Positions 5,944 to 58,861 of a stretch of DNA of 64,000 nucleotides are shown here, one piece after another. Numbering within the stretch: position 1 is the stretch's first letter; each line of letters starts with the position of its first letter. The translations under genes and the position numbers were made by a program. The notes under the pieces are model-generated. The model saw only the letters and a list, made by a program, of their open reading frames with translations, made no database searches and was not told the DNA's origin. Source of the DNA: a virus (taxonomy: Duplodnaviria; Caudoviricetes); IMG/VR virus record IMGVR_UViG_3300005445_000001, positions 1 through 64,000 of that record, one strand, 5' to 3'.

Positions 5944-6207
5944 ATGCGGACTCTTACCCTGATCCTCGTGCTCCTCGCCGCGTGCGGCGTCGATGCCCCC
6001 ACGACGCCCGACGCGCCCGACGTGCCCCCGTCCATCGTGAACACGATCGACGATACCGCCGTGCCTGCCTTCCCCAACTTCGATTTGCCTTCGTGCGCGT
6101 CGCTCGGTTGCCCGCCGACCATGCCGCTCCTCTGCCGCTCGGGTCGCGGACCTTGCCTCTGTGACCCTGATAACGACGGCGACGCGATGCTCTGCAACCC
6201 GTTCTGA
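5944..6207 (+). CDS. Small Cys-rich lipoprotein
   Basis: Signal peptide MRTLTLILVLLAAC with lipobox; Pro/Asp linker; six-Cys C-terminus. Confidence 0.7.
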   Translation: MRTLTLILVLLAACGVDAPTTPDAPDVPPSIVNTIDDTAVPAFPNFDLPSCASLGCPPTMPLLCRSGRGPCLCDPDNDGDAMLCNPF

Positions 6208-6235
6208 ACATCAACACCAAAAAGGACACACTCCC

Positions 6236-7645
6236 ATGCTCACCACCGACAACAAGTTCTCCGACGAAATCTCCTACGCCGATGACGTCGACGTGACGCC
6301 GCTGCCGCCCACCCCGGTCGTCGATCGCGCTCGCCAAGCGATCCCGACCATCAAGACCGTTCCCGCTCCGGTCGTCGCGCCGAGCGCTAACCCGCTCGTC
6401 AGCACCGAAGGTGCCCAGCGTGCCAAGAGCGACGAGCTCGTCGCCAAGTCGCTCGGTTTCAGCCCCACGCCGCCGGTGTTCGAGATCGGCACGCGCGTCA
6501 ACGCGACCGGCGTGGACAACTTCCGGCGCTCGCGTGAGGACTGGGAGAAGCAGCCGAGCTTGCCGGAGCTGTCGCGCGCATTCACCGCGCAGATCGCGGC
6601 CGAGCGGCGCGAGGACAAGCTCGTGGACGCGATCGAGCTCGTCGCGCTCCCCGATGGGCGGCTAGGTCATCGCCCCGACCGCGACGCGTGGCTCGTTAGC
6701 GAGCGCGCGATGGATGGCCTCGCGACCCACATCACCCCGGGCGGCGCGAGCTACCTCAAGCAGTGCCCGATGGATCTCCGGGCGACCAACCTCAATCATT
6801 GGCTGTCGACGTCCAAGCAGTTGGACGCCCGTGCGAGCAAGAAAGCGGGCTCGGAGGTCTACAAGAACCGTCAGCTCACGCTCCGCACGCGCGCTCGCAA
6901 GGGTGGCAACCGTGAGGTGTTCTCGGTCGTGGGTCCGCGCTACGCCGCGTTCGACGTGGATCGCGTCGCTCGCGAGGCCGCTGAGGGTATCGGTGGCGAC
7001 GCCCGCGGCACGATCACCTATAACGGCTACCGCATGACGCTGGATGCGGTCTTCCACAGCAACATCCGGCCGGAGCACGCGGTCGCGGGCGAGTTTTTCA
7101 AGGGCTGCGTGCGCATCAAGGCCGCTGACGACGGCTCGGGCTCGGTGAACGTCTCGCTGGGCCTCTGGCGCAACTTGTGCCGCAACCTCATCATCGTTGC
7201 GTTCGACAAGGTTCTCGTGGGCTCGCGCAAGCACATCGGCGCCGACACGATGCAGACCGACATCGCCGAGCTCATGGCCGATGCCAGCAAGCGCATTGAC
7301 CTCATCGTCGGCAAGTGGAGCGAGGCGTCCACCGAGCAGATCCTCGAACGGTACGACCTGCAGGACGTGGACGACGTGTTTCGTGGGCTCGTCGTCAACG
7401 GTGCCATAAAGGCGACGGGCATCAAGGATGACGAGATGGTTGGACGCCTGCACCGCGCATGGGAGCGTGAGCCTGGCTACTCGAAGACCGCCATCCTGAA
7501 CGCGATCACGCGCGCCGCGCACACCGAAGAGTGGCGCTCGTGGGCCGACACCGAGGAGCTCGAGTCCGCCGCCGGTGAGTTGCTGTACCAGCCGGTGTGG
7601 TCGCTGGATCTCGGTGACCGCAGCGCAGAGGAGCTTCTCGCCTAG
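6236..7645 (+). CDS. DUF932-like protein
   Basis: AAAGGACACAC leader before ATG 6236; DDGSGSVNVSLGLWRNLCRNLII resembles DUF932 core. Confidence 0.7.
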   Translation: MLTTDNKFSDEISYADDVDVTPLPPTPVVDRARQAIPTIKTVPAPVVAPSANPLVSTEGAQRAKSDELVAKSLGFSPTPPVFEIGTRVNATGVDNFRRSREDWEKQPSLPELSRAFTAQIAAERREDKLVDAIELVALPDGRLGHRPDRDAWLVSERAMDGLATHITPGGASYLKQCPMDLRATNLNHWLSTSKQLDARASKKAGSEVYKNRQLTLRTRARKGGNREVFSVVGPRYAAFDVDRVAREAAEGIGGDARGTITYNGYRMTLDAVFHSNIRPEHAVAGEFFKGCVRIKAADDGSGSVNVSLGLWRNLCRNLIIVAFDKVLVGSRKHIGADTMQTDIAELMADASKRIDLIVGKWSEASTEQILERYDLQDVDDVFRGLVVNGAIKATGIKDDEMVGRLHRAWEREPGYSKTAILNAITRAAHTEEWRSWADTEELESAAGELLYQPVWSLDLGDRSAEELLA

Positions 7646-7678
7646 AGTGCCCCTAGGTTGTGTCCCCTAAGGACACTC

Positions 7679-7756
7679 GGCGAAAACGGTGGTGCTTTGA
7701 TCGGCGAGCAGCACCACCGTTCCCTGGGGCGGCATCCCTAGGCTGATGAGCCTGCC
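7679..7756 (+). ncRNA. Type II hammerhead ribozyme
   Basis: GAAA 7682-7685; stem III 7685-7696/7710-7721; UUC site 7720-7722; stem I 7723-7729/7736-7742; CUGAUGA 7743-7749; stem II GGC 7679-7681/GCC 7750-7752; pseudoknot GGCA 7731-7734/UGCC 7753-7756. Confidence 0.88.
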
Positions 7757-7781
7757 AACACGAACGAAAGGACACACACCC

Positions 7782-8267
7782 ATGTTCGAGAACGAAACCA
7801 TCCTTGCCAACAAGCCCGAGATCGGCTCGTTGCAGTGGCACGCGGACTACCTCGAGAGCTTTCGCAAACCGCTCCTCGCGTCGATGATGAAGCGCGCCGA
7901 GCCCGAAGGGATGACTCGCGTCGCACGCAAACTCACGACCGCTGACGGCTCGTTCGTCATGCCGGGCACGTTCGGTTACGAGCTCGATGGCCGGATCAAA
8001 TTCCTGTGGTTCGGGGCACGTGACGTGCTCCTTTGGGGGATCGAGGAGTTCCAGGCGAACCCCGACGACGCTCAGAGTCGGCTGTACGCATTCCGTGCGC
8101 TCTTGCAGGTCAAGGGATACACCGCGACGCTTGGCGTGCTCTCGACGATGGACGAAGCCGAAAATCACCCGTTCGCCACGCGCGGCGACGGCTTCGACAT
8201 CATCACTCGCGACGCGTACGACGTGCTCAAAAACGCGCTCGAAGCGGTGATCCGGGGAGGCAAGTAG
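7782..8267 (+). CDS. Hypothetical early protein
   Basis: AAAGGACACAC leader before ATG 7782. Confidence 0.7.
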   Translation: MFENETILANKPEIGSLQWHADYLESFRKPLLASMMKRAEPEGMTRVARKLTTADGSFVMPGTFGYELDGRIKFLWFGARDVLLWGIEEFQANPDDAQSRLYAFRALLQVKGYTATLGVLSTMDEAENHPFATRGDGFDIITRDAYDVLKNALEAVIRGGK

Positions 8268-8269
8268 TC

Positions 8270-9082
8270 ATGCCGCAAGAAAAGATTGCCGATCGAATCC
8301 GCAAGTTGATGAAGCTCTCGGAGTCGACCAACGAGCACGAAGCCGCTCAGGCCGCGGCGCGCGCCGCCGAGCTGATGAGCGAGCACGACATCACTGAGGC
8401 GATGCTCAAGGTCGCGAACGACACCAACGAACCCGAGCCCAACGTTCCCGAGCGCATCGTCGAAGAAGGGATAGAAGATGGACTCACGAAGCAGCGCGTT
8501 GCGTGGCGCGATCGCATCTTGAGCGCGCTCGCCGGCTCGCTCGATCTCGAGGGATACTTCTCGGGCGGCAACCTCAAGGTGTTCGGCCGCGAGTCGCATG
8601 TCCAGACGTGGAAGTACGTCGGGATGTACCTCGTCAACGAGGTGGATCGTCTCGCCGATCAGGCGTGGCTCGAAAACGGTAAGGATCTCGCAGCCGTTGG
8701 GCAGGTGGCACGCCAGTGGAAGGGGGCCTATCGTCTCGGCGCTGCGGACGTGATCCACAAACGACTGTACGAGGATCTGTATGCGCGCCGCGCCAAGGAG
8801 CGCGAATACGCAAACGGGGAGGTGCCCAAGATGCTCGCGCCGAGCTCATCGCACGAGATTCGCTCGCAACACGCACTCGTGATCGTCAACAAGACGCTCG
8901 ACGTGATCAAGCGCAATCGCGCCGAGGTCGTGGAGGAGTTCAAGAAGCGTAGCAAGGATCTCAAGCTCCGCTCGACGCCGAATATCGGCAACTCGGTGCG
9001 CAGCCGTTCGGGCTATTACGCTGGTCGCGAAGCGGGCGAGAGCGTGAGCCTTCGCGGCGGCGGAAAGGCGCTCAAGTCGTGA
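8270..9082 (+). CDS. DUF2786 domain protein
   Basis: N-terminal KIADRIRKLMKLSESTNEHEAAQAAARAAELMSEHDI; C-terminal GYYAGREAGE. Confidence 0.85.
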   Translation: MPQEKIADRIRKLMKLSESTNEHEAAQAAARAAELMSEHDITEAMLKVANDTNEPEPNVPERIVEEGIEDGLTKQRVAWRDRILSALAGSLDLEGYFSGGNLKVFGRESHVQTWKYVGMYLVNEVDRLADQAWLENGKDLAAVGQVARQWKGAYRLGAADVIHKRLYEDLYARRAKEREYANGEVPKMLAPSSSHEIRSQHALVIVNKTLDVIKRNRAEVVEEFKKRSKDLKLRSTPNIGNSVRSRSGYYAGREAGESVSLRGGGKALKS

Positions 9083-9234
9083 AGCTCGTCGGCGAACGCT
9101 CGTTGACTACATTCCATCGGCGCTTCCGTTGGCTTGACAAGACCGTTCGCCACGAGTGTGTGGCGCTCGCTCGGATCATGGGGATGGTGATCTGCACCGA
9201 CGGCATTCTCGATGGGATCGAGGTGGAGTCGTGA
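9079..9234 (+). CDS. Small protein, paralog of 9518-9682 (51 aa, not in ORF track)
   Basis: MKLVGERSLTTFHRRFRWLDKT; GTGA overlaps at both ends. Confidence 0.6.
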   Translation: MKLVGERSLTTFHRRFRWLDKTVRHECVALARIMGMVICTDGILDGIEVES

Positions 9235-29252: not shown

Positions 29253-30137
29253 TCATGGCTTTCTTCCCCTGATTAACAGACATTTTTTCTTGCCTCGACT
29301 AGAGGCCTTTGCGCTCACTGCGTGTCGCTCGTCAATCTCTTCAATGTGCGCCCACTTGTAGATCTCACGGATGAACGGTGTGTCATTGTTGGTCGCCCAC
29401 ACTTGCGCGCCGGTCGAAGCAAAGAACTTGAGCTCCTCAGCGAGCGAGAGTTGCTCGTCGCGTGAGAATCCGCTGCCGTCGTAGTCATCGAACATCGAAT
29501 CGTAGGGCGGATCGGCATACACCGCGATGTGCCGAGCGTCTTGCTCGCGCCAACGAGCTAGCGTGAGATGGAAATCGCCATCACAGAGCGTCGTCTGGCC
29601 GGAGCGCAGATATGTCGAGTAGCTCTCGATCTCCTCGAGCGACAGCTGACGTGGGTTCGTGAGATCACCCCACGGCACGTTGAAGAAGCCCTTGGAGTTG
29701 GTTCGCCAAAGTCCGTTGAAGCAACGAGCGTTGATAAACAGCGCATGCGCCGCCCGCTCACACCACATCAACCGATTCTGTCGGATCATCTCGTTGAATC
29801 GTGCACGCGCTTGGTAATAGCCATGCTCGGAGTTGCCGTACTTATCTTCTAGCTCGCGAAGTGCTTGGTTGAGCGGCACGGGCATCGCGCGCAGGCAACG
29901 CCACACATCCATCACGACCACGTTAACGTCGGAGAGGATTTTGATTGGGATCGTCGGTATCGACAGCGCGATCGCACCACCACCTAGAAACGGCTCGATG
30001 TATACGCGTGCCTTGCTTGCTAGGATCTCGGGTACGAGCTTGCTAGCCAGCCATCTCTTACCCCCCACAAAACGCATGAAGGGATCAAGAGGTTTGGGCG
30101 GCGCTGGCAGTGCATTTTTCGCAGCGGTGTTGCGCAT
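29253..30137 (-). CDS. dam: Dam/D12-class N6-adenine DNA methyltransferase
   Basis: FMRFVGGKRWL, YIEPFLGGG, CFNGLWRTN..FNVPWG, YADPPY. Confidence 0.9.
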   Translation of the reverse strand: MRNTAAKNALPAPPKPLDPFMRFVGGKRWLASKLVPEILASKARVYIEPFLGGGAIALSIPTIPIKILSDVNVVVMDVWRCLRAMPVPLNQALRELEDKYGNSEHGYYQARARFNEMIRQNRLMWCERAAHALFINARCFNGLWRTNSKGFFNVPWGDLTNPRQLSLEEIESYSTYLRSGQTTLCDGDFHLTLARWREQDARHIAVYADPPYDSMFDDYDGSGFSRDEQLSLAEELKFFASTGAQVWATNNDTPFIREIYKWAHIEEIDERHAVSAKASSRGKKKCLLIRGRKP

Positions 30138-30468
30138 CCCTAGCTCCAATGTCTGAGACTCCACTCCAACCAATATCACGCGCCGCGGAGAGCACCTTCG
30201 CTTGGGCCGGCTTGGGCGCGAGCGCGACGATCTTCGATCCACATCCGTCACAGGTGAGGATGTAGCGCTCGTAGATTGGATACTCACGTTCGTTTCGCTC
30301 TTCGACAATGCGAGATAGGCGATCGATCTCTTGCAATGCTGAGTTATAGAGGCCCTTGAGCCTGACGTACGCTGCAAGCTCAATCGTCTCATCCAATCTG
30401 CTAGCTTCTTCGCCATCGTTGCTCACGGGGTCAACAGCCCCTTGACGAAGTCGACGATCTCGAGCCAC
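30085..30468 (-). CDS. Hypothetical protein with two CxxC motifs
   Basis: CDGC and CEKC. Confidence 0.5.
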   Translation of the reverse strand: MARDRRLRQGAVDPVSNDGEEASRLDETIELAAYVRLKGLYNSALQEIDRLSRIVEERNEREYPIYERYILTCDGCGSKIVALAPKPAQAKVLSAARDIGWSGVSDIGARDAQHRCEKCTASAAQTS

Positions 30469-30605
30469 TCTGGCGTGCTCAAATCTACCTCGCGACGGAT
30501 CACCCAGCCACGACGATGGAGCTCCTCGCGCATCCGATCACGAAGCTGCTCGTAGCTGATCACGTACTCGCCGGGGTCTACGTGACGAAGCATTACGGCA
30601 ACCAT
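30423..30605 (-). CDS. Hypothetical protein
   Basis: Packed ORF. Confidence 0.5.
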   Translation of the reverse strand: MVAVMLRHVDPGEYVISYEQLRDRMREELHRRGWVIRREVDLSTPEWLEIVDFVKGLLTP

Positions 30606-31243
30606 CCATCTGGAAGAGGAGCGATCGCTGTCATTCCGTGTTGAGCATCGCCACCCGAGACAACACCGATGAGATCACCATCGCCATCATAGACGCCTGC
30701 ACCACTGTCGCCGTGCTGCGTCTTGACTTTGATGAGTAAATCACCAGAGCCACATTGAACTCCTCGTGATAGTGCTACACAGCGAAGCTGATCCTTGCGC
30801 CAAGATAGCTTGGCCGGAACCACGTCGAGGACTTCGGCCGAAGCGATCTCGAGGAGCGCTACATCGGCGTCGATGTCCTCGCGAACGACGACAACCCGAC
30901 GATGCGATCCATCGCTCATACGAATACGAGCCGTAGGAATCACCGGGCACATCGTCACGTGCGCGGCGGTCAGCAGATGTCGCCCATCGATGAACACGGC
31001 CGAGCCGCTGCGACGTGGATACCACTCGATCGTGTCGGTCGGCGGCAGTCCATCAGGATGCGGCGCGAGCATGTCTAGCTCGGAGCACCACACGGTGATC
31101 GTTGCGGAGTAGGCGGCTTGGCTGATCCACGAACGCGAGGTCTTCGGCTCGGTCGGAGCCTTCGGAACCAGGCAAGCTGAGAGCAACATCAAGATCACAA
31201 ACCTCATCACTTGTTCCATGCTTATCCGGTTGTCACCCCTCAC
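30593..31243 (-). CDS. Trypsin-like serine protease, predicted lipoprotein
   Basis: LTAAHV (His), DVALL (Asp), GDSGAG (Ser); MRFVILMLLSAC lipobox from Met13. Confidence 0.85.
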   Translation of the reverse strand: MRGDNRISMEQVMRFVILMLLSACLVPKAPTEPKTSRSWISQAAYSATITVWCSELDMLAPHPDGLPPTDTIEWYPRRSGSAVFIDGRHLLTAAHVTMCPVIPTARIRMSDGSHRRVVVVREDIDADVALLEIASAEVLDVVPAKLSWRKDQLRCVALSRGVQCGSGDLLIKVKTQHGDSGAGVYDGDGDLIGVVSGGDAQHGMTAIAPLPDGWLP

Positions 31244-31854
31244 AGGTTGACCGCCTTTGTTAGTTGCTGAGTTGGCGCGGCGGTTGCCGCGATCGAAATA
31301 AGGAGATCACGAAATGGTGGCGGTGTGGCGCGGCGTTGCTTCCTCGACATCCGTTGTACGGCGCCGATGCGGCGCTCACGCAAAGGATCACGTCCGGGAC
31401 GCGGCTTGATCTGTGCTTCGCTCGGACCCCACGTTAGCGCCGGAAGCTCGGTGTGCGCCGCGTAGAGCCACGTGGCCTTGCGCGCGCGATGACCGTAATG
31501 GCCTTGCTCTACGCAGCACGTCCAGCCGATACCATCGCCAGCAGAGATCCAGCCACCTTTTCGCGGGGGTGCAGTCAGTCCGTGGATGCGCCAAGCGAGT
31601 GAATCGGCGGGATGCTCGATCACTCCTCCGAACACGCGAACGGCAGCTAGTGCCGACGCAAAACAGCCGTCATCTTGCCCGACGTTGGGACCCGCCCAGC
31701 GACCAAAGCGCTCGCACGGCGGGTGTGCGATCACGGGGTGCGGTCCTGCGTACAGCCGCGCATCTCGCACGACGTCCCAGGGCTCGATACCATCGAGCCC
31801 GAAGTAGCATCCGCCCGTCGCAACGAACAATGCCGCTATGTAGGTGGCAGTCAT
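31240..31854 (-). CDS. Short C5-cytosine methyltransferase-like protein
   Basis: IAALFV, RDARLY.GP.PVIAHPPC (PC motif), QGHYGHRARKATWL. Confidence 0.6.
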   Translation of the reverse strand: MTATYIAALFVATGGCYFGLDGIEPWDVVRDARLYAGPHPVIAHPPCERFGRWAGPNVGQDDGCFASALAAVRVFGGVIEHPADSLAWRIHGLTAPPRKGGWISAGDGIGWTCCVEQGHYGHRARKATWLYAAHTELPALTWGPSEAQIKPRPGRDPLRERRIGAVQRMSRKQRRATPPPFRDLLISIAATAAPTQQLTKAVNL

Positions 31855-31879
31855 CGTGCGCTCGTCACGTTTGGGGGTG

Positions 31880-32110
31880 TTAACCGGATAAGCATGACTT
31901 GTTCTCCTCTGACATCAACCTACGAAGCTCTTTCCAAGCCGCGACCGATTCGGGGCTCGGGTCATAGATATTGACCGTCACCAACGATTGGTTCTCGGTT
32001 CCGTTGATCGCCTCGAAGATCCGCTTGAACATCGTCGTTTCGTTCTCGCTTGTGTTAACCAGGACTTCGAAGCGCAAAAATCTTCCACCATGTTTTGGTT
32101 CGGTATTCAT
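31880..32110 (-). CDS. Hypothetical protein
   Basis: ATGA overlap. Confidence 0.5.
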   Translation of the reverse strand: MNTEPKHGGRFLRFEVLVNTSENETTMFKRIFEAINGTENQSLVTVNIYDPSPESVAAWKELRRLMSEENKSCLSG

Positions 32111-32604
32111 CTAGATCTCTCCACGTAGTCGGCTAATCCTCTAAGTACAAGAGGATCATCGTTGCAATGACCTAAGGCCAAATTGCAGTGATGACAGAGA
32201 ATTCCCCTAACTTTAAAGGGGTCACGTTGATGATCAACATGCCAAAGATCCCGCTTGTTTTTGGGATGAACGCTCTTACACACAGCACAACATTTTCCTT
32301 GGCTATTGAATAACTTATTCCAATCCTCAATCGTGATTCCAAATTTGGATCTCAGATTGTGCTCACGCTTGTAGTCTGGGTTTCTCTCTAACCATATCTT
32401 TCTATATGCCTTCTTTTTCTCCTTGTTCTCAGGCTTTGACTCATATTTAGCCCGGCTTCTCTTGCCGCTATCTGGGTTTCTAGCTCGCCAAGCCCTTTGA
32501 TACTCTTTCCCAAACTTAGATCGATGTTTGCGGGCAGAGTCATTTACGCTATCGATATGAGCCGCCCTCCAAGCTCTTTGGTACTCCTTATTTGCCGTGG
32601 TCAC
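32107..32604 (-). CDS. Endonuclease VII-like homing endonuclease
   Basis: QGKCCAVC, HVDH, VRGILCHHCNLALG; visibly AT-richer. Confidence 0.85.
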   Translation of the reverse strand: MTTANKEYQRAWRAAHIDSVNDSARKHRSKFGKEYQRAWRARNPDSGKRSRAKYESKPENKEKKKAYRKIWLERNPDYKREHNLRSKFGITIEDWNKLFNSQGKCCAVCKSVHPKNKRDLWHVDHQRDPFKVRGILCHHCNLALGHCNDDPLVLRGLADYVERSR

Positions 32605-33134
32605 TTCATCAAACTCCCATCTTGAGCAAGCTCGTGGAGAAATTCTGCGAGCGTGGCGTAGATGATCACTTGCAGCTGAAGGAGCTGCAGTTTGCCGGGA
32701 TCGGTCTCACCGGCGATCTTGCCCCGGCACGCAGAGACCTTGCTCGTGCAGCGTGTGGCGATCTTCATGAACGTCCGCGAGACGATCTGATCGGTTCCCA
32801 AGAGCTTACCGAACATTGATCCCTTCCCTTCGAACGATGTTTGCAACTCCCCAACGCTCACAGCATTCGTTAGCGCCGATCGATGCTGGGCATTCGCCGA
32901 ACGTCTTGCAGTTGCAGGACGCGACCCACACCGTTGGGTGGTAGAGAATCTTGCTGACGGTCTCATCAGAGTAGAGGCTTCTGATCTTCGCGATGAACGC
33001 AAGGCCAGGTTGGCCATCGTCGGGCAACCACTTGTTGGTGTAGATGACCTTGCGAGCTCGACGGCGCGAGACGATCTCGAGCCGGAACACCTTTACGGTA
33101 TCGGCCATGCTCGGAGGTCGGCAAAACGGGTGCT

Positions 33135-33443
33135 TCACGGCGGCAGACCATCTCCTCGAAGACCGAGCTCGATCTCGAGCATCTCGAGAACATCGAGGCA
33201 CATCCTGAGATGCATCTCAGGCGTCTTGTCGATCAGCTCGCCACGAACGCTCTTGATCGCGTTGGTAACGTCATCCAGCGAAAAACCGCACGTGTGAAAA
33301 TGGGTCTTGCTAAGAGACTTGACAGAGTCACATAGCCTCTTGACTGATCGACGAAGATCACGGTTCTCTTCGAGCGTTAGGTTGAGCATCCTAACGTAAG
33401 CGGCTGCTTCGGGCGGAGGATTGTCTAGATCGATCGAGCTCAT
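33135..33443 (-). CDS. Hypothetical protein
   Basis: TGATG overlap with thyX. Confidence 0.55.
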   Translation of the reverse strand: MSSIDLDNPPPEAAAYVRMLNLTLEENRDLRRSVKRLCDSVKSLSKTHFHTCGFSLDDVTNAIKSVRGELIDKTPEMHLRMCLDVLEMLEIELGLRGDGLPP

Positions 33444-34285
33444 CACTTCTCCATCGTCACGAACAGGTTGGGCCATCGAGCAAGCGCAACACGCTTCCAC
33501 GTGCGGGCAAAGCGGCACATTTCCATATCAGCCGCTTCATCGTCACGCTCGGCAAAGAATTTCATCATGGCCATTGGATTGGTGGTCCAGATAAACGACG
33601 TGCCGCAACTCATCAAGAGATCACCGGCCGTCGACTCGTAGATCCGTTTCTTGTCGAGGCCCTTCGGCTCAGCCCCTTTATGAAGATGTCTATATCGATT
33701 TACCTTTTGTTCGATCGTCCCAACATAAGCGCTATAGTTACTCTGAGCTAGATCTCGAAAGTGGCTGAGTTCTACCTCGTCTTCGAGGTAGTACGGATGC
33801 GCGATGTAGACGCCCGGATGATGCGTGAACCGCGTCGACTCCTGCGACGGCGAGCCTTCCTCGTCGCGATCGGCGCCAACGTAGTTGCGGATCAGCTCGT
33901 GAGATACGCGCCGCGAGATGTGCGCAAAGAAGAAGGTCATCTTGGCGTGGTAACCCGTCGAGCGATGCGGGATTCGTCCCTGCCACATCGAGCGGAGATA
34001 CTCTTCATTTGTCCGCTTAGCGCCGGCTTCGGCGAAGCTGTCGTAGCACTTCCGACCTGCAAGCTCGCACAGTAGCTCGTTGTCGGTGATGCGAAAACCG
34101 TTCTCGCGTAAGCCGTTGTGAGGAACAAGATCCAGCACGTCCTCGAATCCGCCTTCGGGGACGCAGTTGGGTCGATACGTCTGGACCCAATCCGCCATCT
34201 CGATCACACCAAGACGATCTAGCCTCATGTCAGCGAGTACGACGACGATCGGATCGTCGGTGATGATGGTTGCTTTGGCGGTCAC
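33443..34285 (-). CDS. thyX: Flavin-dependent thymidylate synthase, variant motif
   Basis: ELAGRKCYDS, ISRRVSHELIRN..SQESTRF. Confidence 0.8.
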   Translation of the reverse strand: MTAKATIITDDPIVVVLADMRLDRLGVIEMADWVQTYRPNCVPEGGFEDVLDLVPHNGLRENGFRITDNELLCELAGRKCYDSFAEAGAKRTNEEYLRSMWQGRIPHRSTGYHAKMTFFFAHISRRVSHELIRNYVGADRDEEGSPSQESTRFTHHPGVYIAHPYYLEDEVELSHFRDLAQSNYSAYVGTIEQKVNRYRHLHKGAEPKGLDKKRIYESTAGDLLMSCGTSFIWTTNPMAMMKFFAERDDEAADMEMCRFARTWKRVALARWPNLFVTMEK

Positions 34286-34330
34286 TTGAGCGGCTCCCCG
34301 AGTGTTCCCTTGAGTTGGGCGATGCGGCGC

Positions 34331-34783
34331 CTACCACAAAAATTCATGATCTTGATCTCCCAAACGGACCCTAGCCATTGCTAGATATTGTCTCAGCAAC
34401 TCTACTCTATGAGATTGCTTGTTAAGCATTCCATCTAGGGCATTGCAAAATCTGCACAATACCCCACGAATTTTCCCAGTCGTATAGCAATGATCAACAC
34501 AAGCTGTTCTATGAGAAAGGGGTAACCCGCACGACTCACATTTGAGTCCACTCCTAGCAATAGCTAGACGAACCTCTTCAACTGGAACACCTAATCTCCA
34601 AGCCCTCTGATGATCTCTCCTAGATTCTGGATTTTTCTTCTGTCTATCAATTATCCCCTTGATTAGGCGCTTCCTATTTCGAAGATATTTCTCCTTAGCT
34701 GTTATCCTACAGCATAGGATACAGGCTCCGTGTTTATTCCTTTCGGGGTTTGGGTGCCCCCTCTTGCAGTATTTGATCGTCAT
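34331..34783 (-). CDS. Endonuclease VII-like homing endonuclease
   Basis: CESCG, CVDHC..TGKIRGVLCRFCN; AT-richer. Confidence 0.8.
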   Translation of the reverse strand: MTIKYCKRGHPNPERNKHGACILCCRITAKEKYLRNRKRLIKGIIDRQKKNPESRRDHQRAWRLGVPVEEVRLAIARSGLKCESCGLPLSHRTACVDHCYTTGKIRGVLCRFCNALDGMLNKQSHRVELLRQYLAMARVRLGDQDHEFLW

Positions 34784-35181
34784 TTCAATGAAGGTGGAGC
34801 CTCTCCCCTCATCTGTGCAATCTTGCGTTCCAGGTACCACTTACTCTTTAGTAAGTCCTCCAAACCAGCCTTTTGTTTATGGCGCAAGATGTACTTCACC
34901 ACATTGCCAAGCTCAAATCCAAGGTCGAAGGTCTCGATGATCCGCATCACGAGGTCACCCTTGTAGTGGCTCGGGTTGACCGGATCATCTCGATCACACT
35001 CGAGACACGTGCCATCAGAACGCATCAACTTACTTCCATGCTTCGAGCAAATCGGTTGGGGTGACGTCGTCTTGCTGGGTAGAACTCGACGGGCCTTATC
35101 AGCGATCTCGGTTGATCTTCTACCTGCATCCTCTTGCATGATCCTCATCCCTTCCAGATCCATTGGGTCATCCTTATCCAT
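34780..35181 (-). CDS. DUF3310 domain protein
   Basis: DPVNPSHYKG, GNVVKYILR, EDLLKSKWYL. Confidence 0.85.
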   Translation of the reverse strand: MDKDDPMDLEGMRIMQEDAGRRSTEIADKARRVLPSKTTSPQPICSKHGSKLMRSDGTCLECDRDDPVNPSHYKGDLVMRIIETFDLGFELGNVVKYILRHKQKAGLEDLLKSKWYLERKIAQMRGEAPPSLK

Positions 35182-35414
35182 CAGATCTTGCCTCGTTTGC
35201 CTGGATGAGTCTGGCGAGCACGCCGACGCTTTGCAGCCCAATCAGCAAGACTCATCTTGTCGATGGCTGATCCGCCACCCTTTACCGTGGTGCGAACGCG
35301 ACCATCCTTGTCGGTGCGCACCACGTAGCGAACGGTGGGAATGTAGTTGAGAGGCCTGGCCGGCTTCGTGCTGCTCTTCATCGCTCGATCAGCTTACGAT
35401 CTTGCGAGGAGACC

Positions 35415-35921
35415 TTAGGCGGCTCGCGGGAAGTTGAGGCGCGCAAACTCTCCGAACAACTCCATCGCTGCGCGATCATAAGCTAGTGCTGCTTCCTCTC
35501 GCGTATCGTAGGAACCTAAGTTGATCGATCGCCTCCTCGACTTGATCCATGCGCCCCACCGTCTACCACGTTTGGAGACGCCTTTGAATCCTGAAGTGTT
35601 GTGACTCGGCCTAGCGGCATTTTGAAGTTGTTGCTCACGTGTCGCTAACCGCAAATTCGAGCGTCTGCAGTCCAACGGATTCCCGTTCCTGTGATCAACT
35701 TCTTGTGTTGGATAGGCTCCCAAGATCGCGCGCATCACTTCGCGATGTAGATACAACGTAGACCTCTTCCATCTTCGACGACGAACGTAGAATTTCCCAT
35801 GCGTCGACTTCTTGACCTCCCAGTCAATTACAGCAAGGGGCTGATCCTCATCGTCGATCAAAGCAACGACAAGGTGTGATCCGTGCGCGATCTTGATCTC
35901 GATCACGCTGCCCGCGCCCAA
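35415..35921 (-). CDS. HNH-AP2 homing endonuclease
   Basis: [25 protein letters not shown]; AP2-like SGFKGV..WGAWI..LGSY..AALAYD. Confidence 0.9.
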
Positions 35922-38900
35922 GTTTGAGAGATTCGTGATTCGATCGGGAATGGAATCCTATGTCCGTCCCTTTCATACTCTTGAGGAAAGACTCGATCGA
36001 GGTCAGCTTGAAACTTTTCCGCATCATCTTCCCAAACCTCAAATACTGAAGCGTCGTGGACTTGGACGATTGGAAAAGCTTGCTTGTAGCAAGCACACAC
36101 CTCTATCATTCTCTCCATTCCTGTATTCATGATCGCCGCTCCGGTGGCTTGGGGGACAATGTTCAAAGCTTCGTTAGCATCGACATTTCCAAGAGGCCAC
36201 CAGCGCGTGCGACCGTCGACGAAATCGTAGAGTTTGAATGGATACGTGGAGGCCTTGAGCACCGTCTCGCGTTGCCAACGCACGACGCCTGCCATCCGGC
36301 GCATGAGCAAACCAACCGCGCGCTCGACATCAGCAAGCTTGAGATCGTAGCCATCCTTGAGGAGCGTCTTCCACAACGTGTCGATCGACCCACCATAAAA
36401 CGCGCCGTACTCGACATTTTTTGTGACCGAGCGAGCCCGTTTCTGTTCACCCTTGACGAGCTGATCCCAGTTCGTGAAGATCACCTTGGCGCATTCGGTG
36501 TGAACATCCTTGCCGGTCGCAAAGACGTCGAGTAGGAATGGATCGCCAGAGATGATCGCGATGATTCTCGCCTCTAGCTGAGCAAGATCGAAGCTCACAA
36601 ACTTGCGCCCGTGCCGTGCCACAAACTGTCGTTTGCTCGTCGGACGCTCAATCGCTGCGTATGCCTCCCCCTTATCGATGCATCTCTGAATGTCCTCGGG
36701 CTTGACCTTGTAGAACCCTCGAGACACCAAACCCCTTGCGAACAGGTTGGCATCCGTTTCACCCTCAAGTCGAACCGTCTTGATGAGCTCCTTGAGTGGA
36801 TTGGAGACAACCGGATCACGACTTGCCCAGCGGCCAGAGATCTTGTGAGTAGACCAAATGCTATGGCATCGATCGTTCTCGTCGCAGAATCCATACTGAA
36901 TGACGTCACCGCTAGCGGTGTACCGATCGAACATCGGCCAGATGAACGTGCCTAGCGCTTTGTCTTGCTCGCGGTACTTGAGAATGTTCCGAACGATCGG
37001 AAGGTGGGCCAGCGACTCGAGGATCTCTTTCTTCGTCGAGACCTCACCGGTTTCGGTCTTCTGATGGAGGCTCACGCCCATCGCTAGGAGCAACGCCGCA
37101 ATGTGCTTGCCGGCATTGATGTTCCACTTCCAGTCGGACTCGGTCTTCATCTCGCGCAAGCGAGCGTTGTATCGCTCCTCGTAGTCATCGGGATCGTCTT
37201 TGCGCTGCTTGCTCGCTTGCTGAATCGCAAGATGGTGGAAGATCGCTTCACGGATCTTGGGATCGGCTGCGGCATCATCTACCTTGCGACGTTCCTCGGC
37301 AGCGATCTTCGAGAACGAGTTGAGGAGCTCGGTGTTGACCTCACGACTCACCGGCATCCCATCGAGGTGCATCTGGCTCGCGAGCATCGCCATCTTGCGA
37401 TCGCGCTCGTAGACACGCTCGACGTTGTTTTTCTTCACCATGATCTCGAGCGGTGCACGTAGGGCTCGCGTGGCGAAGGTATCAAGCGCGTTGTACGTCG
37501 TCAGCTTTTCGGGCGTCTCCTCAGCATTCCTAAATTCCGACTTCCATGGTTGGATGCAAAAGAACTGCGTGGCGACGTTCTGCAACCGATGGCTCACCCC
37601 AGGAAACGCTGCGTGGTGAGCAAGAAGCGTGTCCGCGAAGCTAGTATCGTTGATGATGAAGCCGTACGCTCGAAACACCGTGTAGTCATAGAGCCCGTTG
37701 TGGAACGTCAATCGGACCTTGCCGAACAGCAGTTGCATCAAGCTGTGCGTCCACGCCGGTAGCAGATCCCACATCACAGAGACGGCACGATGCTCGGTCG
37801 CGAGCCCGAGCGCACGAATGCGAGCGACGTAGGCCATCAGCGCGTGATGACGATCCGGATCCTCGACGTAGGTCTCGAGGTCGATCGCGAGCTCGCCTTC
37901 CTTGAGCGCTTGCTCGAACATCTCGAGGAACAGCCGCAGCGCGCGATCGGCGTCGGTGAATTCGATCTCAATGTTGGGATGGAGCCTAAGGTCATCGCCT
38001 TTAGCGAGCCGATCGACCTTGAGCGCGTCGTACATCAAGTTGACGTAGGCAAGGTCTGGTGAGTGGGTGCCACCTATCGTCGCGCCACCTCCACGCAGTA
38101 GCGCCGCAGGGTGGATTGCGGGTATAAGAGGCCTAGGGCCAGAGCCATCCACATCGACGTCAAACGTCGCTGACATGATGTCGGTGATCTTGATCGGCTT
38201 CTTCTTTTTAGGCTTGACCTTGCCGCCGAGCTTCTTCTTGAGCTCTTTCTCCTTGAGTTTCTCGGCGTAGACGTCTGGTGCATCGGCCTTCACCTTTCGT
38301 TCGATCGCGGCTCGATCCTTCGCCATCTGCGCGATGATGTAGCGCTGGCTCGGCTTCCTACGATGAGCCTTCCAAATCTCATCGCGGATCTGTTTCTCTC
38401 GATAGAGAAGAACCTTCTTGAGGAGCTGCTTTTCGATTTTCTCGATCGCCTTTTTCTGGCGCGCAAGGAGCTTTGCCTCGATGCGCTGACGATCCTTCTG
38501 TCCACGCTTCATCTTCTTCGGCGCATCGGGCGGATCGATCGCGTCGAGCACGGCCTTAGGAATCACCGACCGCGCTGCGACCGCACCGAGCGTCAAGATC
38601 GGCTTGCCGGGCCATTGCGCGAGCTCGCGTCTGAGCCTCTCCTTGCAGGCCTCAGCCGCTTTCTCTCGTAGATGCTCAGCCGATCCATACGGGGGCATGC
38701 AAAGAGTACTGTTAAGGATGGCGACCTGTTCTCGAGGTCGACCGATCTTCGCGAGCAGCTTGTTGACGACTTGCCCAGACTGGCCGACGAATGGCCGTTT
38801 GAGCATGATTTCTGTTCGGCCCGGGCCTTCGCCAATTAGAATCCACTTCGGATTCTCAGGGAACTCAGAGAACACAGGCTTGGTAGGAACCCCGCACGTA

Positions 38901-38992
38901 GAGAACGGACATTCGTCGCACTTGGCTCCATCAGCCGTGCCACGTAGAACCGGAAGCGCAATGCGCTCCGGTGCCGTTTGTGCTGTAGCCAT
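35903..38992 (-). CDS. polA: Family A DNA polymerase with N-terminal uracil-DNA glycosylase and 3'-5' exonuclease domains
   Basis: UDG: [20 protein letters not shown]; exo: IDLET, HNGLYD, YNALD; pol: [22 protein letters not shown]. Confidence 0.95.
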
Positions 38993-38998
38993 TGCTGG

Positions 38999-39559
38999 CT
39001 ATTCGGGCTCTGAGCTCGCGGCTTCGATCTGCCGCACCACGACCGACGAACGGATCCCGAGTGAAGCAGCGAAGCCACCTGGCCAACCATTCGGTGATGG
39101 ACCCGCATCGACTAGCTCGGCGAGCATTTGTGGATCATCCACAAGTCGCGAGCCGCGACGAAGGTACACAACGAGGCGTTCACCAAGATCGACTTGGACA
39201 ATGCGACCAGAGCGCGCGAGCGACTGCAAGTGGTAACGCAGCTGGCGCATCGCCGTGTCTTCGCGTTCGGCGAGCGATCCATACTCATCGAGCACGTCTT
39301 GGTAGATCTCGAAGGAGCGCTTGGGAATCGTGTCGCTCAAGCAAGCCTCGATGAGCTCGTCGAGGATCTCCGAAGAAGATTTCTTCCAAGGCTCGCGCAG
39401 CGGTTCGGTTGGTTTCGTCTTGCGTCTTCGCAAGCACAGTCCATGTGACAGCGCCTTGATCGCAGCTAGCGGCGCATCATGTGCTGGATGAATTTCTTCG
39501 CGGTCGCAGTCCTCGTCACGACAAATCTTCGACGGATCTAGATCCTCTTCTGCGTACAT
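38999..39559 (-). CDS. Hypothetical protein, possible winged helix
   Basis: LRYHLQSLARSGRIVQV. Confidence 0.55.
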   Translation of the reverse strand: MYAEEDLDPSKICRDEDCDREEIHPAHDAPLAAIKALSHGLCLRRRKTKPTEPLREPWKKSSSEILDELIEACLSDTIPKRSFEIYQDVLDEYGSLAEREDTAMRQLRYHLQSLARSGRIVQVDLGERLVVYLRRGSRLVDDPQMLAELVDAGPSPNGWPGGFAASLGIRSSVVVRQIEAASSEPE

Positions 39560-39726
39560 GTACCCGCCCCCGGGGTTGATGTGGTGGCCCGATCGACATT
39601 CGGGCTTTTGGTCACGTGAGCAACACGATCACGGAGCCTCTAAGATAACCTGACCCGGGGAGAATCCGTTAGGATCTTGATCTGGCAAGGTTATGCCAGG
39701 GGTAACCGCTCTTACTTACGCGTCGC

Positions 39727-40194
39727 CTAAGCCCTCACCCTGGCTGAGATCACCCTATCGAGAATTTTGTGAGATCTCGGTCGAAAGTGATGGTGGAGAT
39801 CGCACGCATCGACACCTCGCCGCACGAACACGTGGCCTCGACGACACGCTCGAACGAGTCCTAGACCACCACCATACGCAAGGTCGGCGCACCATTCATT
39901 GCCGCGACAGATCGACAGCCACTGCTTCCAGTGCACCGCTCCGGTCAAGTAGCCACCGACGAGCGACGTCTCGAACCTTGAGCACGGCGATCGATGAGGA
40001 ACTGGTGTCAACGCTCCGCAGCTCACGCGGCCTCCAGGTTCACGCGTGATGACGTTCGCCGTGAACCTCGACTCGTGCCATGCGATCGCGAGCAACCGCT
40101 CGTGAGACACGCCCGTGATGAGCTCGGCGAACCGTGCAGCCGCTTCGTGATCGCGTGGAGAGGATAGGAACAGACACAAGATGAAGATTTTCAT
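39727..40194 (-). CDS. Lytic transglycosylase-like secreted protein
   Basis: Signal-like N-terminus; LLAIAWHESRF resembles SLT catalytic ES motif. Confidence 0.55.
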   Translation of the reverse strand: MKIFILCLFLSSPRDHEAAARFAELITGVSHERLLAIAWHESRFTANVITREPGGRVSCGALTPVPHRSPCSRFETSLVGGYLTGAVHWKQWLSICRGNEWCADLAYGGGLGLVRACRRGHVFVRRGVDACDLHHHFRPRSHKILDRVISARVRA

Positions 40195-40210
40195 CTTGCC
40201 TACATAACGC

Positions 40211-40497
40211 AACGGGCCCGCCTAGGCGAGCCCGTTTCGTGCCTCTCGATGGTCAGTCTTCTAGGCTGAATCTCTCACAGGCCATCGTCCCGTGCTACGT
40301 GGGAGCCTGTTCCACTCGCAGGCAACTATAGATCCTTCGATCGACGCTCGTGAAGCTAGTGAATCAGCTTGCGCTGCCGATGGTGTTCCACCGAGTCACG
40401 AACGGCTGTCCCGGGTTGCTGAAAAGGATCGTCGACGGTGATTGGCTGTCTCCAGCCATTGGTGAGGGAGTTGTCTTGCGATGAGATCACCATCGAC
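40211..40497 (-). ncRNA. Candidate structured non-coding RNA
   Basis: Nested stems, GAGA and GCAA tetraloops, and three + strand C-A mismatches that become G-U pairs on the minus strand. Confidence 0.6.
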
Positions 40498-40504
40498 GAA
40501 AACG

Positions 40505-41053
40505 TTACGCGCGACGAGCAGCGCCCGCGGTGCTGTTCGCCGGCTTCGCTGCCGGCGCTGCAGCCTTCCCCTTGTTCGCAACCGGCGGCGTCGCTGCCGG
40601 AGCCGCTGCCGCTGGCGCATCCTCGAGCGGGCGCTCGGAGACGACGTTCGCGAACGTCTTGGCTTCCTGCATCTGGCCCGTCGCCGGGTCGACGCGCGCA
40701 TCACCTTGGCGATGAACGATCGTCGCGCGAAGCCGCGCGCCCATGATCTCCGACGCCCGGAACTTGTCGAGCGACGCGCCGCACGCAACCATGAGGGTCT
40801 TCAGACGACCCCATGACTGCTTGAGCAGCGAGTAGTTCCCCCACGCGCGCGAGCCAGCATGCGGACTGTCCGAATCCTCGGGGACCTGAAACGTCACCAC
40901 GATCATCGGGTTGTTCTTGCTCGATGGCTTCTGCTCGACTTTGATCACGTCGAACGTGTAGTCACCGGGCGGGATGAGCTGGAAGCTTCCATCCATCTCG
41001 GGGACGTCGGTCAGGTCGATCTCTACTTCGAAATCTGCGAATTCTGCGGCCAT
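40505..41053 (-). CDS. DUF669 family ssDNA-binding-like protein
   Basis: AGGAG RBS; LIPPGDYTFDV..SSKNNPMIVVTF. Confidence 0.8.
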   Translation of the reverse strand: MAAEFADFEVEIDLTDVPEMDGSFQLIPPGDYTFDVIKVEQKPSSKNNPMIVVTFQVPEDSDSPHAGSRAWGNYSLLKQSWGRLKTLMVACGASLDKFRASEIMGARLRATIVHRQGDARVDPATGQMQEAKTFANVVSERPLEDAPAAAAPAATPPVANKGKAAAPAAKPANSTAGAARRA

Positions 41054-41075
41054 TGCTGTTTCTCCTGTTGGTTTT

Positions 41076-41960
41076 CTACTTGCGAACGATAGCCGGCGCG
41101 GATCCACCGCTCGCGGCCTTGGAAACTTGCTTGATGACGATCGGCGGTTGCGCGGCCTTCGCTGCAACGGGCGGCGTCGCGGGCGCAGCTACGGTGATCG
41201 ATGAGAACCTAGGCGTTGCAGCGATCTTCGGCAACGCAGCACGAAGCGCGCCGACGTCGTAGCCAAGCTCGGTGAGAAATGTCGAATAGGTGCCGACCAG
41301 CGGATCAGGTGGCATCGCGCGATCGCTCATTCCTCGACGGTGACCGACGAGGTAGCTCGCGTAGCGCTTCGTGCGAACCTCGAACTTGGTGCCGTTGACG
41401 CGCGAATACCAGATGTAGTCACACGCCCCAGCAATCTGATCCTTGGCTCGTCCAGCGATCAGCGGCTTGCCAAGCGGCTCGTCTTCACTTGGATCTTGAA
41501 CGAGCGCCAGCCAAACCACGTTGACGCCCAAGGAGTGAAGATCAACGCGAACCTGTCTCATGTGCGCGCCAAGGTCACCATACGCACGACGATTGTCCGC
41601 CTTAGTCATCGCACCCATGATCGTCGCGAGCGCGAGCTCGGCGTAGAACGTCGCCGAGTCGATACCGATGGTCAACACACGACCCGACGCGATAAGTTGC
41701 TTGAGCCGCGGGATCGCCTGCGTCTTGATGTCGCCGGTGTTCTCGATCGCCCACACGATCGGCTTCACGCCGGGCTCGAACAGGTGTTCGTCTGGGATGT
41801 CGATCAGCGACTCCCAACCTTTCTCCGTCGAGTCGGAGAGGATCAACGGACGCGGGAAGCTCGCAAGGAATGTGGTCTTGCCAGTGCGCAACGCCCCATA
41901 GATCAGGAACGTATTGATCGGCAGCTTGTTCTCGTCGGCGACCAGATCGATCTCACGCAT
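41076..41960 (-). CDS. AAA_24 / Sak4-like ATPase
   Basis: LIYGALRTGKTT Walker A; IGIDSAT Walker B. Confidence 0.8.
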   Translation of the reverse strand: MREIDLVADENKLPINTFLIYGALRTGKTTFLASFPRPLILSDSTEKGWESLIDIPDEHLFEPGVKPIVWAIENTGDIKTQAIPRLKQLIASGRVLTIGIDSATFYAELALATIMGAMTKADNRRAYGDLGAHMRQVRVDLHSLGVNVVWLALVQDPSEDEPLGKPLIAGRAKDQIAGACDYIWYSRVNGTKFEVRTKRYASYLVGHRRGMSDRAMPPDPLVGTYSTFLTELGYDVGALRAALPKIAATPRFSSITVAAPATPPVAAKAAQPPIVIKQVSKAASGGSAPAIVRK

Positions 41961-42444
41961 TGCGCTGCTTCCTTCGCGGACCACGCCCACGCGCGGCGAC
42001 GTTGTGCACCGCGTGCACCTCTTGGATCGCGCACCGCTCGTCACGGCACGGAACGAAATCAGGGTTGTCGAGCAAGTCATCCTCGCTTGGAGGAACTGGC
42101 TGATCGATGTGTAGTTGACGGTTGTCCATTGCCCCGTTCAAGGGTTGTATCACCTCATGGGGAGACTTCAGGGCCTTCATCATTTTTCCGTTCTCGAGAC
42201 TGAGCTCATACACCTCTTTAGCCAACCTCGACGAGTACTCCTTCAAATGAACCACTTGACCCTGAAGCTCTAGAACCTGCTTCTGCAGATCGTTGGTCTC
42301 ATAGACCCGAGGCGCGTAGTCGCCGATCCCGGTCCGCCACGCGATCAGCTCGCGAATCAATTCGACCGGATCATCCTCGATTTGATCCTTGTAGTTTGGG
42401 TCATGAAGGTAGAGGAAGCGCTTCGCACGCTCTACCGGATTCAT
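41953..42444 (-). CDS. Coiled-coil hypothetical protein
   Basis: Heptad-rich middle. Confidence 0.55.
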   Translation of the reverse strand: MNPVERAKRFLYLHDPNYKDQIEDDPVELIRELIAWRTGIGDYAPRVYETNDLQKQVLELQGQVVHLKEYSSRLAKEVYELSLENGKMMKALKSPHEVIQPLNGAMDNRQLHIDQPVPPSEDDLLDNPDFVPCRDERCAIQEVHAVHNVAARGRGPRRKQRNA

Positions 42445-42659
42445 CGCTCGGCCGTCCGATTGATCTCATCGTCGACACGGATCTCCTTCACACCGATATG
42501 GCCTTCCGATTGATAGAACACGCTCGCGCGAGCTCGAATCTCAGGAAAGCCCGTCGAGCGAAGATGATCTTGGATCATCGCAGCGATCTGATCGGCTCGA
42601 GTCCAATCAACGTCGCCAACGACAGGTAGATCTACAGCAACGGTTACATAGCTCTTCAT
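42441..42659 (-). CDS. Hypothetical protein
   Basis: ATGA overlaps. Confidence 0.5.
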   Translation of the reverse strand: MKSYVTVAVDLPVVGDVDWTRADQIAAMIQDHLRSTGFPEIRARASVFYQSEGHIGVKEIRVDDEINRTAER

Positions 42660-42916
42660 CCGGGATCCTCTAATTCTCGACGGTTGATCTTGTTCGGCTT
42701 GCTCACTAGCTTGATGCGTGAGTCAGGAACGCCCAAGATTCGCCACGTTGAAGTCTTGCCATTGAATTCGACCTTGATCAGCTCTGCATCATCGTGAAGT
42801 CGAACCCAATGTCCCTTGTCGGGCTCGAGCCCAACGTACGTAGCGCGCTCCCACTTGCACCAACGATGCGTGTTGCGCCGAACCCAAACGAGTTGACCTT
42901 CGGTGAAGCTCTTCAC
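42656..42916 (-). CDS. Hypothetical protein (SH3/Tudor-like pattern)
   Basis: FTEGQLVWVR..WERAT. Confidence 0.5.
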   Translation of the reverse strand: MKSFTEGQLVWVRRNTHRWCKWERATYVGLEPDKGHWVRLHDDAELIKVEFNGKTSTWRILGVPDSRIKLVSKPNKINRRELEDPG

Positions 42917-44034
42917 GATTCACCCGAACTGCAGTGGTTGAACTCTTGGCACGTGCCGAAGCGGTTCGCACAATTGTTGCGGGCTCGCGGCCAACTGTTA
43001 TTGGCCCTCGAGAGCTGGATCAGTCCTTCCCACCGTCGAAGATCTTCCTTGTGCTGCTCGAGTTGGAAGCTCGTCGGAGCCACTAGCGTACGATGAAATT
43101 GTGGCTCCTTTTGCGTGCCGCAGAGATTCATGATCACGCCTTGGAGCTCACCGAACCGCTTGTCTAGGCCAAGCCGCTTCCAAAGCATCACCTGACCCAA
43201 CACCTCCCCGTCATTTCCCCAGCCGTTTACGAAGAAGTCGTCAAAGCGACCTGAGCTCTTGTGCTCGACGATGTACGTCCCTGCAGGTCGACCTTCGATC
43301 GCCTCGGCGTAGAACCCAACCAAGTCGAACCGGCATGATTCGTTCGTGCGCGGATCACGAAGGTTGTACTCCACAGCAAGCGTCTGGATCGGATCGTGTT
43401 GGTACAGAAACGTGTAGAGGTAGAAGACGCGGTAGCCTTCATCGACGAGTGCCGGATCTGCCTCGGAGCGCATCCGATCGCGAAACGTCTCCGGCGTGAG
43501 TGGATAGTCCGGCTTGATCGTCCGTAGGTACCAGATCGCGAGCAGCGCGTGGATGATCGAGCCGATCGCCAGCGCCGGAGACTCCTTGTAGCTCGGCGTC
43601 GACGTTGAGACATAGACCGTCGGCCGATCGTACTTCCGTTTCCACAGATACGGACAACGTTGGTAGACGCCAAACGAGCTCCAACCTCGTCCGGTTGATG
43701 CACCACCAAGACGCGGCACGTTGTGCTCGGCAAACGCCTTGTGCATCACGCTATCGACCGTTGGGTAGACGGTGACAGGAACCGCGAGCTCGGAGAGAAA
43801 GTCGTCGTCGGAACCTTGAGGCTGAGACGGATCTTCAAGATCCTCTTCTTCGATGGCGACGCCGAACCGATCGGTGAACTTGACGAGACAGCCGTTCGCT
43901 TTGTTGGCCGCGTTGGGATGAATCTGGAAGCCGTTCGTGCGCGCGTAGTCGCTCGATGCAGGCCAGAGCTTGCGACCGCAGAGCAAACAATTCGACTTGA
44001 TCACGTTCATCTGAAGTTGTCGTCTCCATCCCAT
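42913..44034 (-). CDS. PD-(D/E)XK (Cas4/RecB-like) nuclease
   Basis: CPYLW, RFDLV, IVEHKSS, C-terminal CANRFGTCQEFNHC. Confidence 0.8.
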   Translation of the reverse strand: MGWRRQLQMNVIKSNCLLCGRKLWPASSDYARTNGFQIHPNAANKANGCLVKFTDRFGVAIEEEDLEDPSQPQGSDDDFLSELAVPVTVYPTVDSVMHKAFAEHNVPRLGGASTGRGWSSFGVYQRCPYLWKRKYDRPTVYVSTSTPSYKESPALAIGSIIHALLAIWYLRTIKPDYPLTPETFRDRMRSEADPALVDEGYRVFYLYTFLYQHDPIQTLAVEYNLRDPRTNESCRFDLVGFYAEAIEGRPAGTYIVEHKSSGRFDDFFVNGWGNDGEVLGQVMLWKRLGLDKRFGELQGVIMNLCGTQKEPQFHRTLVAPTSFQLEQHKEDLRRWEGLIQLSRANNSWPRARNNCANRFGTCQEFNHCSSGES

Positions 44035-46036: not shown

Positions 46037-46127
46037 CAGAAGAGTAGAACACGCTGCGAGGAGAACCTTTCCTCCGTAGCTCTCTGAGGTTACGCCTCCC
46101 CGTGAAAGGGTAGGCTGTTCGCTCTGG

Positions 46128-56479: not shown

Positions 56480-56755
56480 TTGTCGCTGTTGGTTCTGCGT
56501 TGCCAAGCGGCGATACCTCCGCGCGATGTTGTAGGCTCTGAAGGTGGCAGACGAATCTAAAAAACCTCAACCACCTCCCCTGAAGCTCGCAAATGCGGGC
56601 CGTCATCTTCGCAAGCGATCTCGTGTCTACTGCCAAGAACTCGATAAGTTCAAATCGAACCTTGTAACCTTTGCTTGTGTCGAGACTACCGAAGAAGATC
56701 TCGAGGCCTCGGCGCTAGACTTTGCTCGCGCATGGATAGGTTGCGGTGGCTTCCT

Positions 56756-58238: not shown

Positions 58239-58240
58239 AA

Positions 58241-58414: not shown

Positions 58415-58416
58415 AG

Positions 58417-58826: not shown

Positions 58827-58861
58827 GTCCGATCAGGTAGCGATCGGCTACGTGTGGGATA

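Follow-up and report, generated by a model that had tools for sequence, protein, structure and literature searches.

Genes and features at the locus

The window, i.e. the whole stretch of 64,000 nucleotides that was analysed, belongs to an IMG/VR record that has direct terminal repeats, the 85.65-kb genome of an uncultured dsDNA virus, and all features of the locus described here lie on its + strand. The upstream gene (6236-7645, with the stop codon TAG at 7643-7645) encodes a 469-aa DUF932-like protein (weak Pfam match to DUF932; PHROG 1362), which is the conserved anchor of the locus, and the ribosome site AAAAGGACACACTCCC is found 5' of its ATG at 6236. The downstream gene (7768-8267) comprises a Shine-Dalgarno AAGGA (7768-7772), ATG 7782 and an ORF of 161 aa that matches no known family. 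Between the two genes lies a putative type II hammerhead ribozyme (7679-7756, 78 nt), which starts 33 nt past the stop codon and whose stem II ends 30 nt 5' of ATG 7782 and 15 nt 5' of the ribosome site. A 6-bp hairpin, GUGUCC-CCUAA-GGACAC (7660-7676), is placed between the stop codon and the ribozyme. We note that the 3' half of this hairpin is a copy of AAGGACAC, and that an extended ribosome-site context, AAGGACAC(N)CCC-ATG, is found at 6219-6238 and 7767-7784 of the window and precedes several genes of the virus lineage.

No promoter-like or terminator-like sites were found on the + strand between 5571 and 9400, which weakly fits co-transcription of the genes; the label 'early operon' given to this region in the original prediction can only be inferred from the same-strand small genes with no promoter- or terminator-like sites between them. 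GenBank phage DNA searches with window positions 6100-9100, in both near and distant modes, gave no similarity. The window also encodes a replication set (in the region of 29253-47780 and 54380-62478), including DNA polymerase, helicase, Sak4-like annealing protein, exonuclease and DNA methyltransferase; the large ORFs at 46128-47780, 54380-56479 and 61306-62478 match no PHROG family.

Read from 5' to 3', the element contains the 5' strand of stem II (GGC, 7679-7681, whose partner is GCC at 7750-7752), the core nucleotides G12 A13 A14 (GAA, 7682-7684), the stem III hairpin (7685-7721; 12 bp, 7685-7696/7710-7721, with a 13-nt loop, -20.2 kcal/mol), C17 (7722), the stem I hairpin (7723-7742; 7 bp, 7723-7729/7736-7742, including one G-U, with loop CGGCAU), the core nucleotides C3 U4 G5 A6 U7 G8 A9 (CUGAUGA, 7743-7749), the 3' strand of stem II (GCC, 7750-7752) and a 3' tail UGCC (7753-7756) that can form a 4-bp pseudoknot with GGCA of loop I (7731-7734). 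All invariant hammerhead nucleotides are present: A15.1-U16.1 is the first pair of stem III (A7685-U7721), the standard pairs adjacent to the core are found as well (N1.1-N2.1 = C7723-G7742; N10.1-N11.1 = G7750-C7681), and position H17, which must not be G, is C7722. [quoted passage not shown] The complete type II core order, the 12-bp stem III and the 7-bp stem I of the original prediction were thus confirmed base for base by direct reading, as was the complementarity of loop I and 3' tail (GGCA/UGCC), which covaries in homologues. Its cut site after C7722, which would lie 59 nt 5' of ATG 7782, agrees with the place of C17 in the hammerhead consensus (predicted scission 7722/7723), and the ORF list does open a frame inside the core, at ATG 7746 within CUGAUGA.

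Type II hammerheads typically, though not obligatorily, have a pseudoknot of at least 4 bp that joins loop I to the nucleotides directly following stem II, and hammerheads of type II with such a loop I/3' tail pseudoknot are active (PMC3088659). In the window element the pseudoknot tail adjoins stem II without any spacer, and 4 bp is at the short end of the range; when the pseudoknot of one construct was cut from 6 to 4 bp, cleavage became ~20-fold slower (PMC3088659). The short pseudoknot and the missing spacer count against reading the element as a functional ribozyme.

Descriptor and Rfam searches

With a lenient descriptor of type II hammerheads (minimum stem lengths of 4, 3 and 4 bp), a search of both strands of the 85,650-bp genome gave a single match, namely the window element, and none was obtained in 100 dinucleotide-shuffled genomes. 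At gathering thresholds, no Rfam family reaches its cut-off in the window. The search with hammerhead models that the original prediction had proposed as a check returned, with relaxed thresholds, Hammerhead_II (RF02276) as the top match, which covers the model end to end and stays below the cut-off (21.1 bits vs the gathering cut-off of 37 bits; E-value 0.04 locally and 0.003 for the whole genome). Sub-threshold matches were obtained by the same search in 11 of the 14 control genomes. Two features lower the score: the stem III loop carries an insertion of 24 nt, and loop I and the tail are unlike the consensus. A pattern scan of IMG/VR (GGCGAAA...TC...CTGANGAGCC) found at least 120 stretches, and dozens among the matches listed satisfy the descriptor.

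Copies in related viruses

The DUF932-like upstream protein has 118 homologues, many of them on contigs of 80-94 kb, and 12 related contigs were examined. A type II hammerhead is found directly after the stop codon of the homologous gene in nine of the 12 (L130, L131, L133, L134, L135, L137, L138, L139 and L166), and seven more copies are located 1-4 kb downstream (in L004, L130, L131, L132, L133, L138 and L166). Stem III reaches a length of up to about 75 nt in these relatives. The Rfam cut-off of 37 bits is reached by 4 of the 16 related copies (38.3-43.9 bits), including the syntenic copies L130:5451 and L166:2946. No hammerhead was found in the stretch of L136 that was examined. Searches for related loci with the 161-aa downstream protein found no relative, those with the upstream protein retrieved just one viral contig, and none was found with the upstream protein in metagenome contigs.

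Several candidates were rejected. L129, an extra match of the clade-specific DNA pattern, is a chance match within coding sequence and contains no hammerhead. Weak model matches were obtained at three further places (window 8333-8394, L133:6134-6211 and G001:24899-24983), where stem III or nucleotides essential to the core are missing. The second of these (L133:6134-6211) reads GGCGAG where a hammerhead has GGCGAA; it is devoid of stem III, an intact CUGACGAGCC comes next, and it may be a decayed hammerhead copy.

Two of the related contigs carry a different structured RNA of ~105 nt at the syntenic spot of the hammerhead (L004:4448-4550 and L132:5405-5512). Its outer stem of ~25 bp shows 7 compensatory changes, its inner hairpin covaries, and the two contigs hardly differ in its centre (GTGGCGACATCCAC...CTACAGCCGAG...GATGACGCGCCAGCTGGCGA). 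Rfam gave no meaningful match for this RNA (mir-431 is sub-threshold and on both strands, 30.7 bits with a cut-off of 70), and pattern scans found no further copies; a relaxed pattern added nothing, and the scan matches were unrelated marine-phage coding sequence and chance matches. This RNA may have a role in processing, for instance as an RNase III site. The junction therefore offers a natural comparison, with a hammerhead in most genomes, another structured RNA in two and nothing in one.

Covariation and conservation

For the covariation analysis we aligned 15 copies, from the window virus and ten related contigs (two L166 copies were found later and are outside the alignment). Of the 13 other copies known at that stage, a model built from the window element alone (R1) placed 11 within its 16 best matches, and a model built from nine copies (R2) recovers all 15 then-known copies, with 38-49 bits for the copies it was not trained on. 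In the model-based alignment, which leans to the proposed structure because its seed was built from the window, 97% of stem cells are paired and 17 of the 21 pairs are changed on both sides across the 15 copies, including 10 of 11 modelled pairs in stem III and 7 of 7 in stem I. None of 500 shuffles matched the observed covariation, and registers slid by 1-3 columns pair in 27-40%. As this alignment is fitted to the model, we made a second count by distance from the invariant core, which is independent of the model alignment: positions 1-6 of stems I and III are paired in 11-14 of 14 copies, and a position shows as many as five pair types, in agreement with the model-based count. MAFFT alignments, which misplaced the 3' strand of stem III and the 5' strand of stem I, were left out of the pair counts.

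The core is invariant except at N7 (U, C or A) and H17 (C in 14 copies, U in one), and stem II (GGC/GCC) is identical in 15/15 aligned copies. The pseudoknot takes different sequences, such as GGCA/UGCC (window), UCGUU/AACGA, UGGUC/GACCA, GUGAUC/GAUCAC and UCACCU/AGGUGA. Its complementarity, starting 0-3 nt past stem II, adds up to 61 bp in the family, compared with 35 +/- 3 bp for shuffled tails and 35 +/- 4 bp for tails swapped between members (0 of 5000 as high). A lack of covariation in homologues had been named beforehand as a refutation of the ribozyme, and the outcome is the opposite: the core is kept, and compensatory substitutions are found in stem I, in stem III and in the pseudoknot. 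In three syntenic copies (L131:5476-5566, L133:5491-5602 and L139:5517-5596) we observed a Shine-Dalgarno AAAGGA directly at stem II and no tail; loop I of the L133 and L139 copies contains CCU, complementary to AGG of the ribosome site. In copies of this type, the ribosome site itself may be the pseudoknot partner.

A further model (R3) was built from an alignment of 61 type II hammerheads on unrelated viral contigs, among the matches listed. It scores the window element at 53.0 bits (E 3.6e-12), a score that also leans to the proposed structure since the 61 members were collected and aligned with R2, so that R2 and R3 both descend from the seed built from the window. The element is the sole match of R3 in the window, and the matches of R3 up to E = 1 are exactly the 15 family copies. 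These results bear on whether the element could be a chance resemblance in G+C-rich intergenic DNA, as might be thought from its sub-threshold Rfam score and from the sub-threshold matches in most control genomes. Against this stand the lack of any match in the 100 shuffled genomes, the score of the viral hammerhead model R3 (53 bits, E 4e-12) and the syntenic conservation with covariation; the descriptor, covariation and R3 results effectively refute a chance origin, to which we assign a negligible probability. Judged by its sequence and that of its relatives, the window element is a genuine conserved type II hammerhead.

Conservation of a hammerhead-like structure could also be explained by a structured RNA that does not cleave itself; it might act through stabilising hairpins, bind a protein or be cut by a host RNase, and its core would be an inactive relic. 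The different long structured hairpin, with no hammerhead, that two relatives hold at the same site would fit such an RNA, as would the sub-cut-off Rfam score. The catalytic nucleotides, on the other hand, are kept in 15/15 copies while nearly all stem positions have changed, which indicates that catalysis, and not just the hairpins, is under selection; moreover, four copies in relatives reach the Rfam cut-off, and type II hammerheads built in this way have shown activity both in vitro and in vivo (PMC3088659, PMC8782182). We regard an inactive relic as very improbable, and take 7679-7756 to be, with high probability, a functional type II hammerhead within a same-strand gene array of this uncultured 85.65-kb dsDNA virus.

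RNA folding and the 5' flank

The isolated 78-nt RNA has a folding z of -2.3, and its hammerhead fold is 1.5 kcal/mol above the minimum-energy fold, with pseudoknot and tertiary energy uncounted. When the context of 161 nt (7640-7800) is folded, the minimum-energy fold (-60.3 kcal/mol) pairs a 5' flank (7640-7657, + strand), complementary to stem I and loop I (7723-7743), with the stem I region; the best hammerhead-compatible fold has -56.5 kcal/mol, i.e. it is 3.8 kcal/mol weaker with the pseudoknot uncounted. The flank runs from the last nucleotides of the upstream ORF to 12 nt beyond it, and contains the stop codon (7643-7645). This pairing suggests a conditional hammerhead, in which the flank would trap the stem I region until a ribosome terminating on the upstream gene melts the pairing, so that cleavage would be coupled to translation. 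According to RNAduplex, the flank/stem I duplex has -26.3 kcal/mol vs -17.4 +/- 3.3 kcal/mol for shuffled flanks (z -2.7; 1 of 300 as good), and this value, the minimum-energy fold and the stop codon inside the flank all speak for such coupling. The pairing is not conserved, however: over the 14 family copies the mean z is -0.3, and many copies are without any. The complementarity comes largely from a self-complementary CCUAGG motif, the energy comparison omits pseudoknot and tertiary terms, and a single result at p ~0.003 among 14 tests is weak. We consider a translation-coupled hammerhead unlikely.

A broader idea combines this coupling with the ~105-nt RNA of L004 and L132. The site after the DUF932-like gene might be an RNA-processing slot with interchangeable modules, mostly a hammerhead and in those two contigs an RNase III target or an undescribed self-cleaving motif, and cleavage in the window could depend on upstream translation. 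We offer this as a speculation that is rather unlikely to hold as a whole.

Downstream ribosome sites and proposed role

All family copies have a Shine-Dalgarno 1-25 nt downstream (AAGGA in 14/15 copies), with a start codon after it, and an AAGGAC...CCCATG context is found 3' of all family hammerheads, while the genes that follow are mostly unrelated to one another. The same placement is seen outside the family: of 67 type II hammerheads on unrelated viral contigs among the matches listed, 55 (82%) are followed within 60 nt by a ribosome site and the start codon of an ORF (40 aa or longer), as compared to 12% of random positions, and the median distance from the ribozyme end to the start codon is 25 nt (again for unrelated viral hammerheads among the matches listed). 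Several unrelated contigs contain 3-6 copies; L023, L031, L097 and L115 contain 5-6 each, nearly all of them 13-56 nt before a start codon. We also observed tandem pairs of hammerheads ~10 nt apart in some unrelated contigs (e.g. L023 and L115).

The fixed position before ribosome sites, together with the lack of promoter-like and terminator-like sites in the array, makes self-cleavage of a polycistronic mRNA the best-supported mechanism, and cleavage after C7722 in such an mRNA is the most likely role of the window element as far as its sequence and setting indicate. The element would be transcribed within a polycistronic mRNA, where stems III and I would fold first and GCC would then close the 3-bp stem II; pairing of the tail UGCC with loop I would hold stems I and II parallel, and the 2'-OH of C7722 would attack its own 3' phosphate. 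Cleavage would leave a 2',3'-cyclic phosphate at the 3' end of the upstream mRNA, which encodes the DUF932-like protein and would terminate in the 12-bp hairpin of stem III. The downstream product would carry its 5'-OH on the hairpin of stem I, 59 nt 5' of ATG 7782, and would have the 161-aa ORF as its first cistron. As a net effect, the stability and translation of the conserved upstream gene would be uncoupled from those of the variable small genes behind it. Cleavage, co-transcription with the flanking genes and an effect on expression are steps that we infer. A role in mRNA processing was proposed for prophage hammerheads by Perreault et al. (PMC3088659), and the role of bacterial and phage hammerheads was still called open and unproven in a 2019 review (PMC6765202).

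Comparison with known systems

Phages have been known to carry type II hammerheads since 2011, and a further example is by itself unsurprising to the specialist. The window element adds a well-supported hammerhead lineage for an uncultured family of roughly 85-kb viruses, most copies of which are missed by standard Rfam annotation (4 of the 16 related copies pass, and the window's does not). The distance from the ribozyme to the next ribosome site never exceeds about 25 nt, which makes the idea that it serves in mRNA processing and insulation testable.

Phage T7 has RNase III processing sites between its early genes, where the host enzyme cuts a long double-stranded hairpin. These sites and the window element have in common that they are intergenic RNA structures at which a polycistronic phage transcript is, or in the window would be, divided into units with a stable hairpin at the end. 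The difference is that the window RNA would cut itself. L004 and L132 do have a long hairpin of ~105 nt at this junction in place of the hammerhead. RiboJ is a synthetic ribozyme insulator engineered from a satellite RNA ribozyme. Like RiboJ, the window element would be a self-cleaving ribozyme just 5' of a ribosome site that gives the downstream cistron a defined, hairpin-bearing 5' end; unlike RiboJ, it is natural and of type II.

Type II hammerheads next to prophage genes have been in the literature since 2011 (PMC3088659). The window element shares with RF02276 and the examples of Perreault et al. 2011 (PMC3088659) an identical core (CUGANGA, GAA, A15.1-U16.1 and H17), a pseudoknot of at least 4 bp immediately 3' of stem II, and same-strand phage genes on both sides. 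It differs from them in its long stem III (12 bp with a 13-nt loop), in a loop I and tail that deviate from the Rfam consensus UGGU/GCCA, and in its number, as there is just one copy in the window genome and several copies flank individual genes in the known cases. Three type II hammerheads of Desulfovibrio vulgaris cleave in vivo according to cyPhyRNA-seq, and one of them was shown to adjoin genes of bacteriophage origin (PMC8782182). Those hammerheads belong to the same ribozyme type and were verified experimentally in a cultivated bacterium, whereas the window element is known from the sequence of an uncultured virus.
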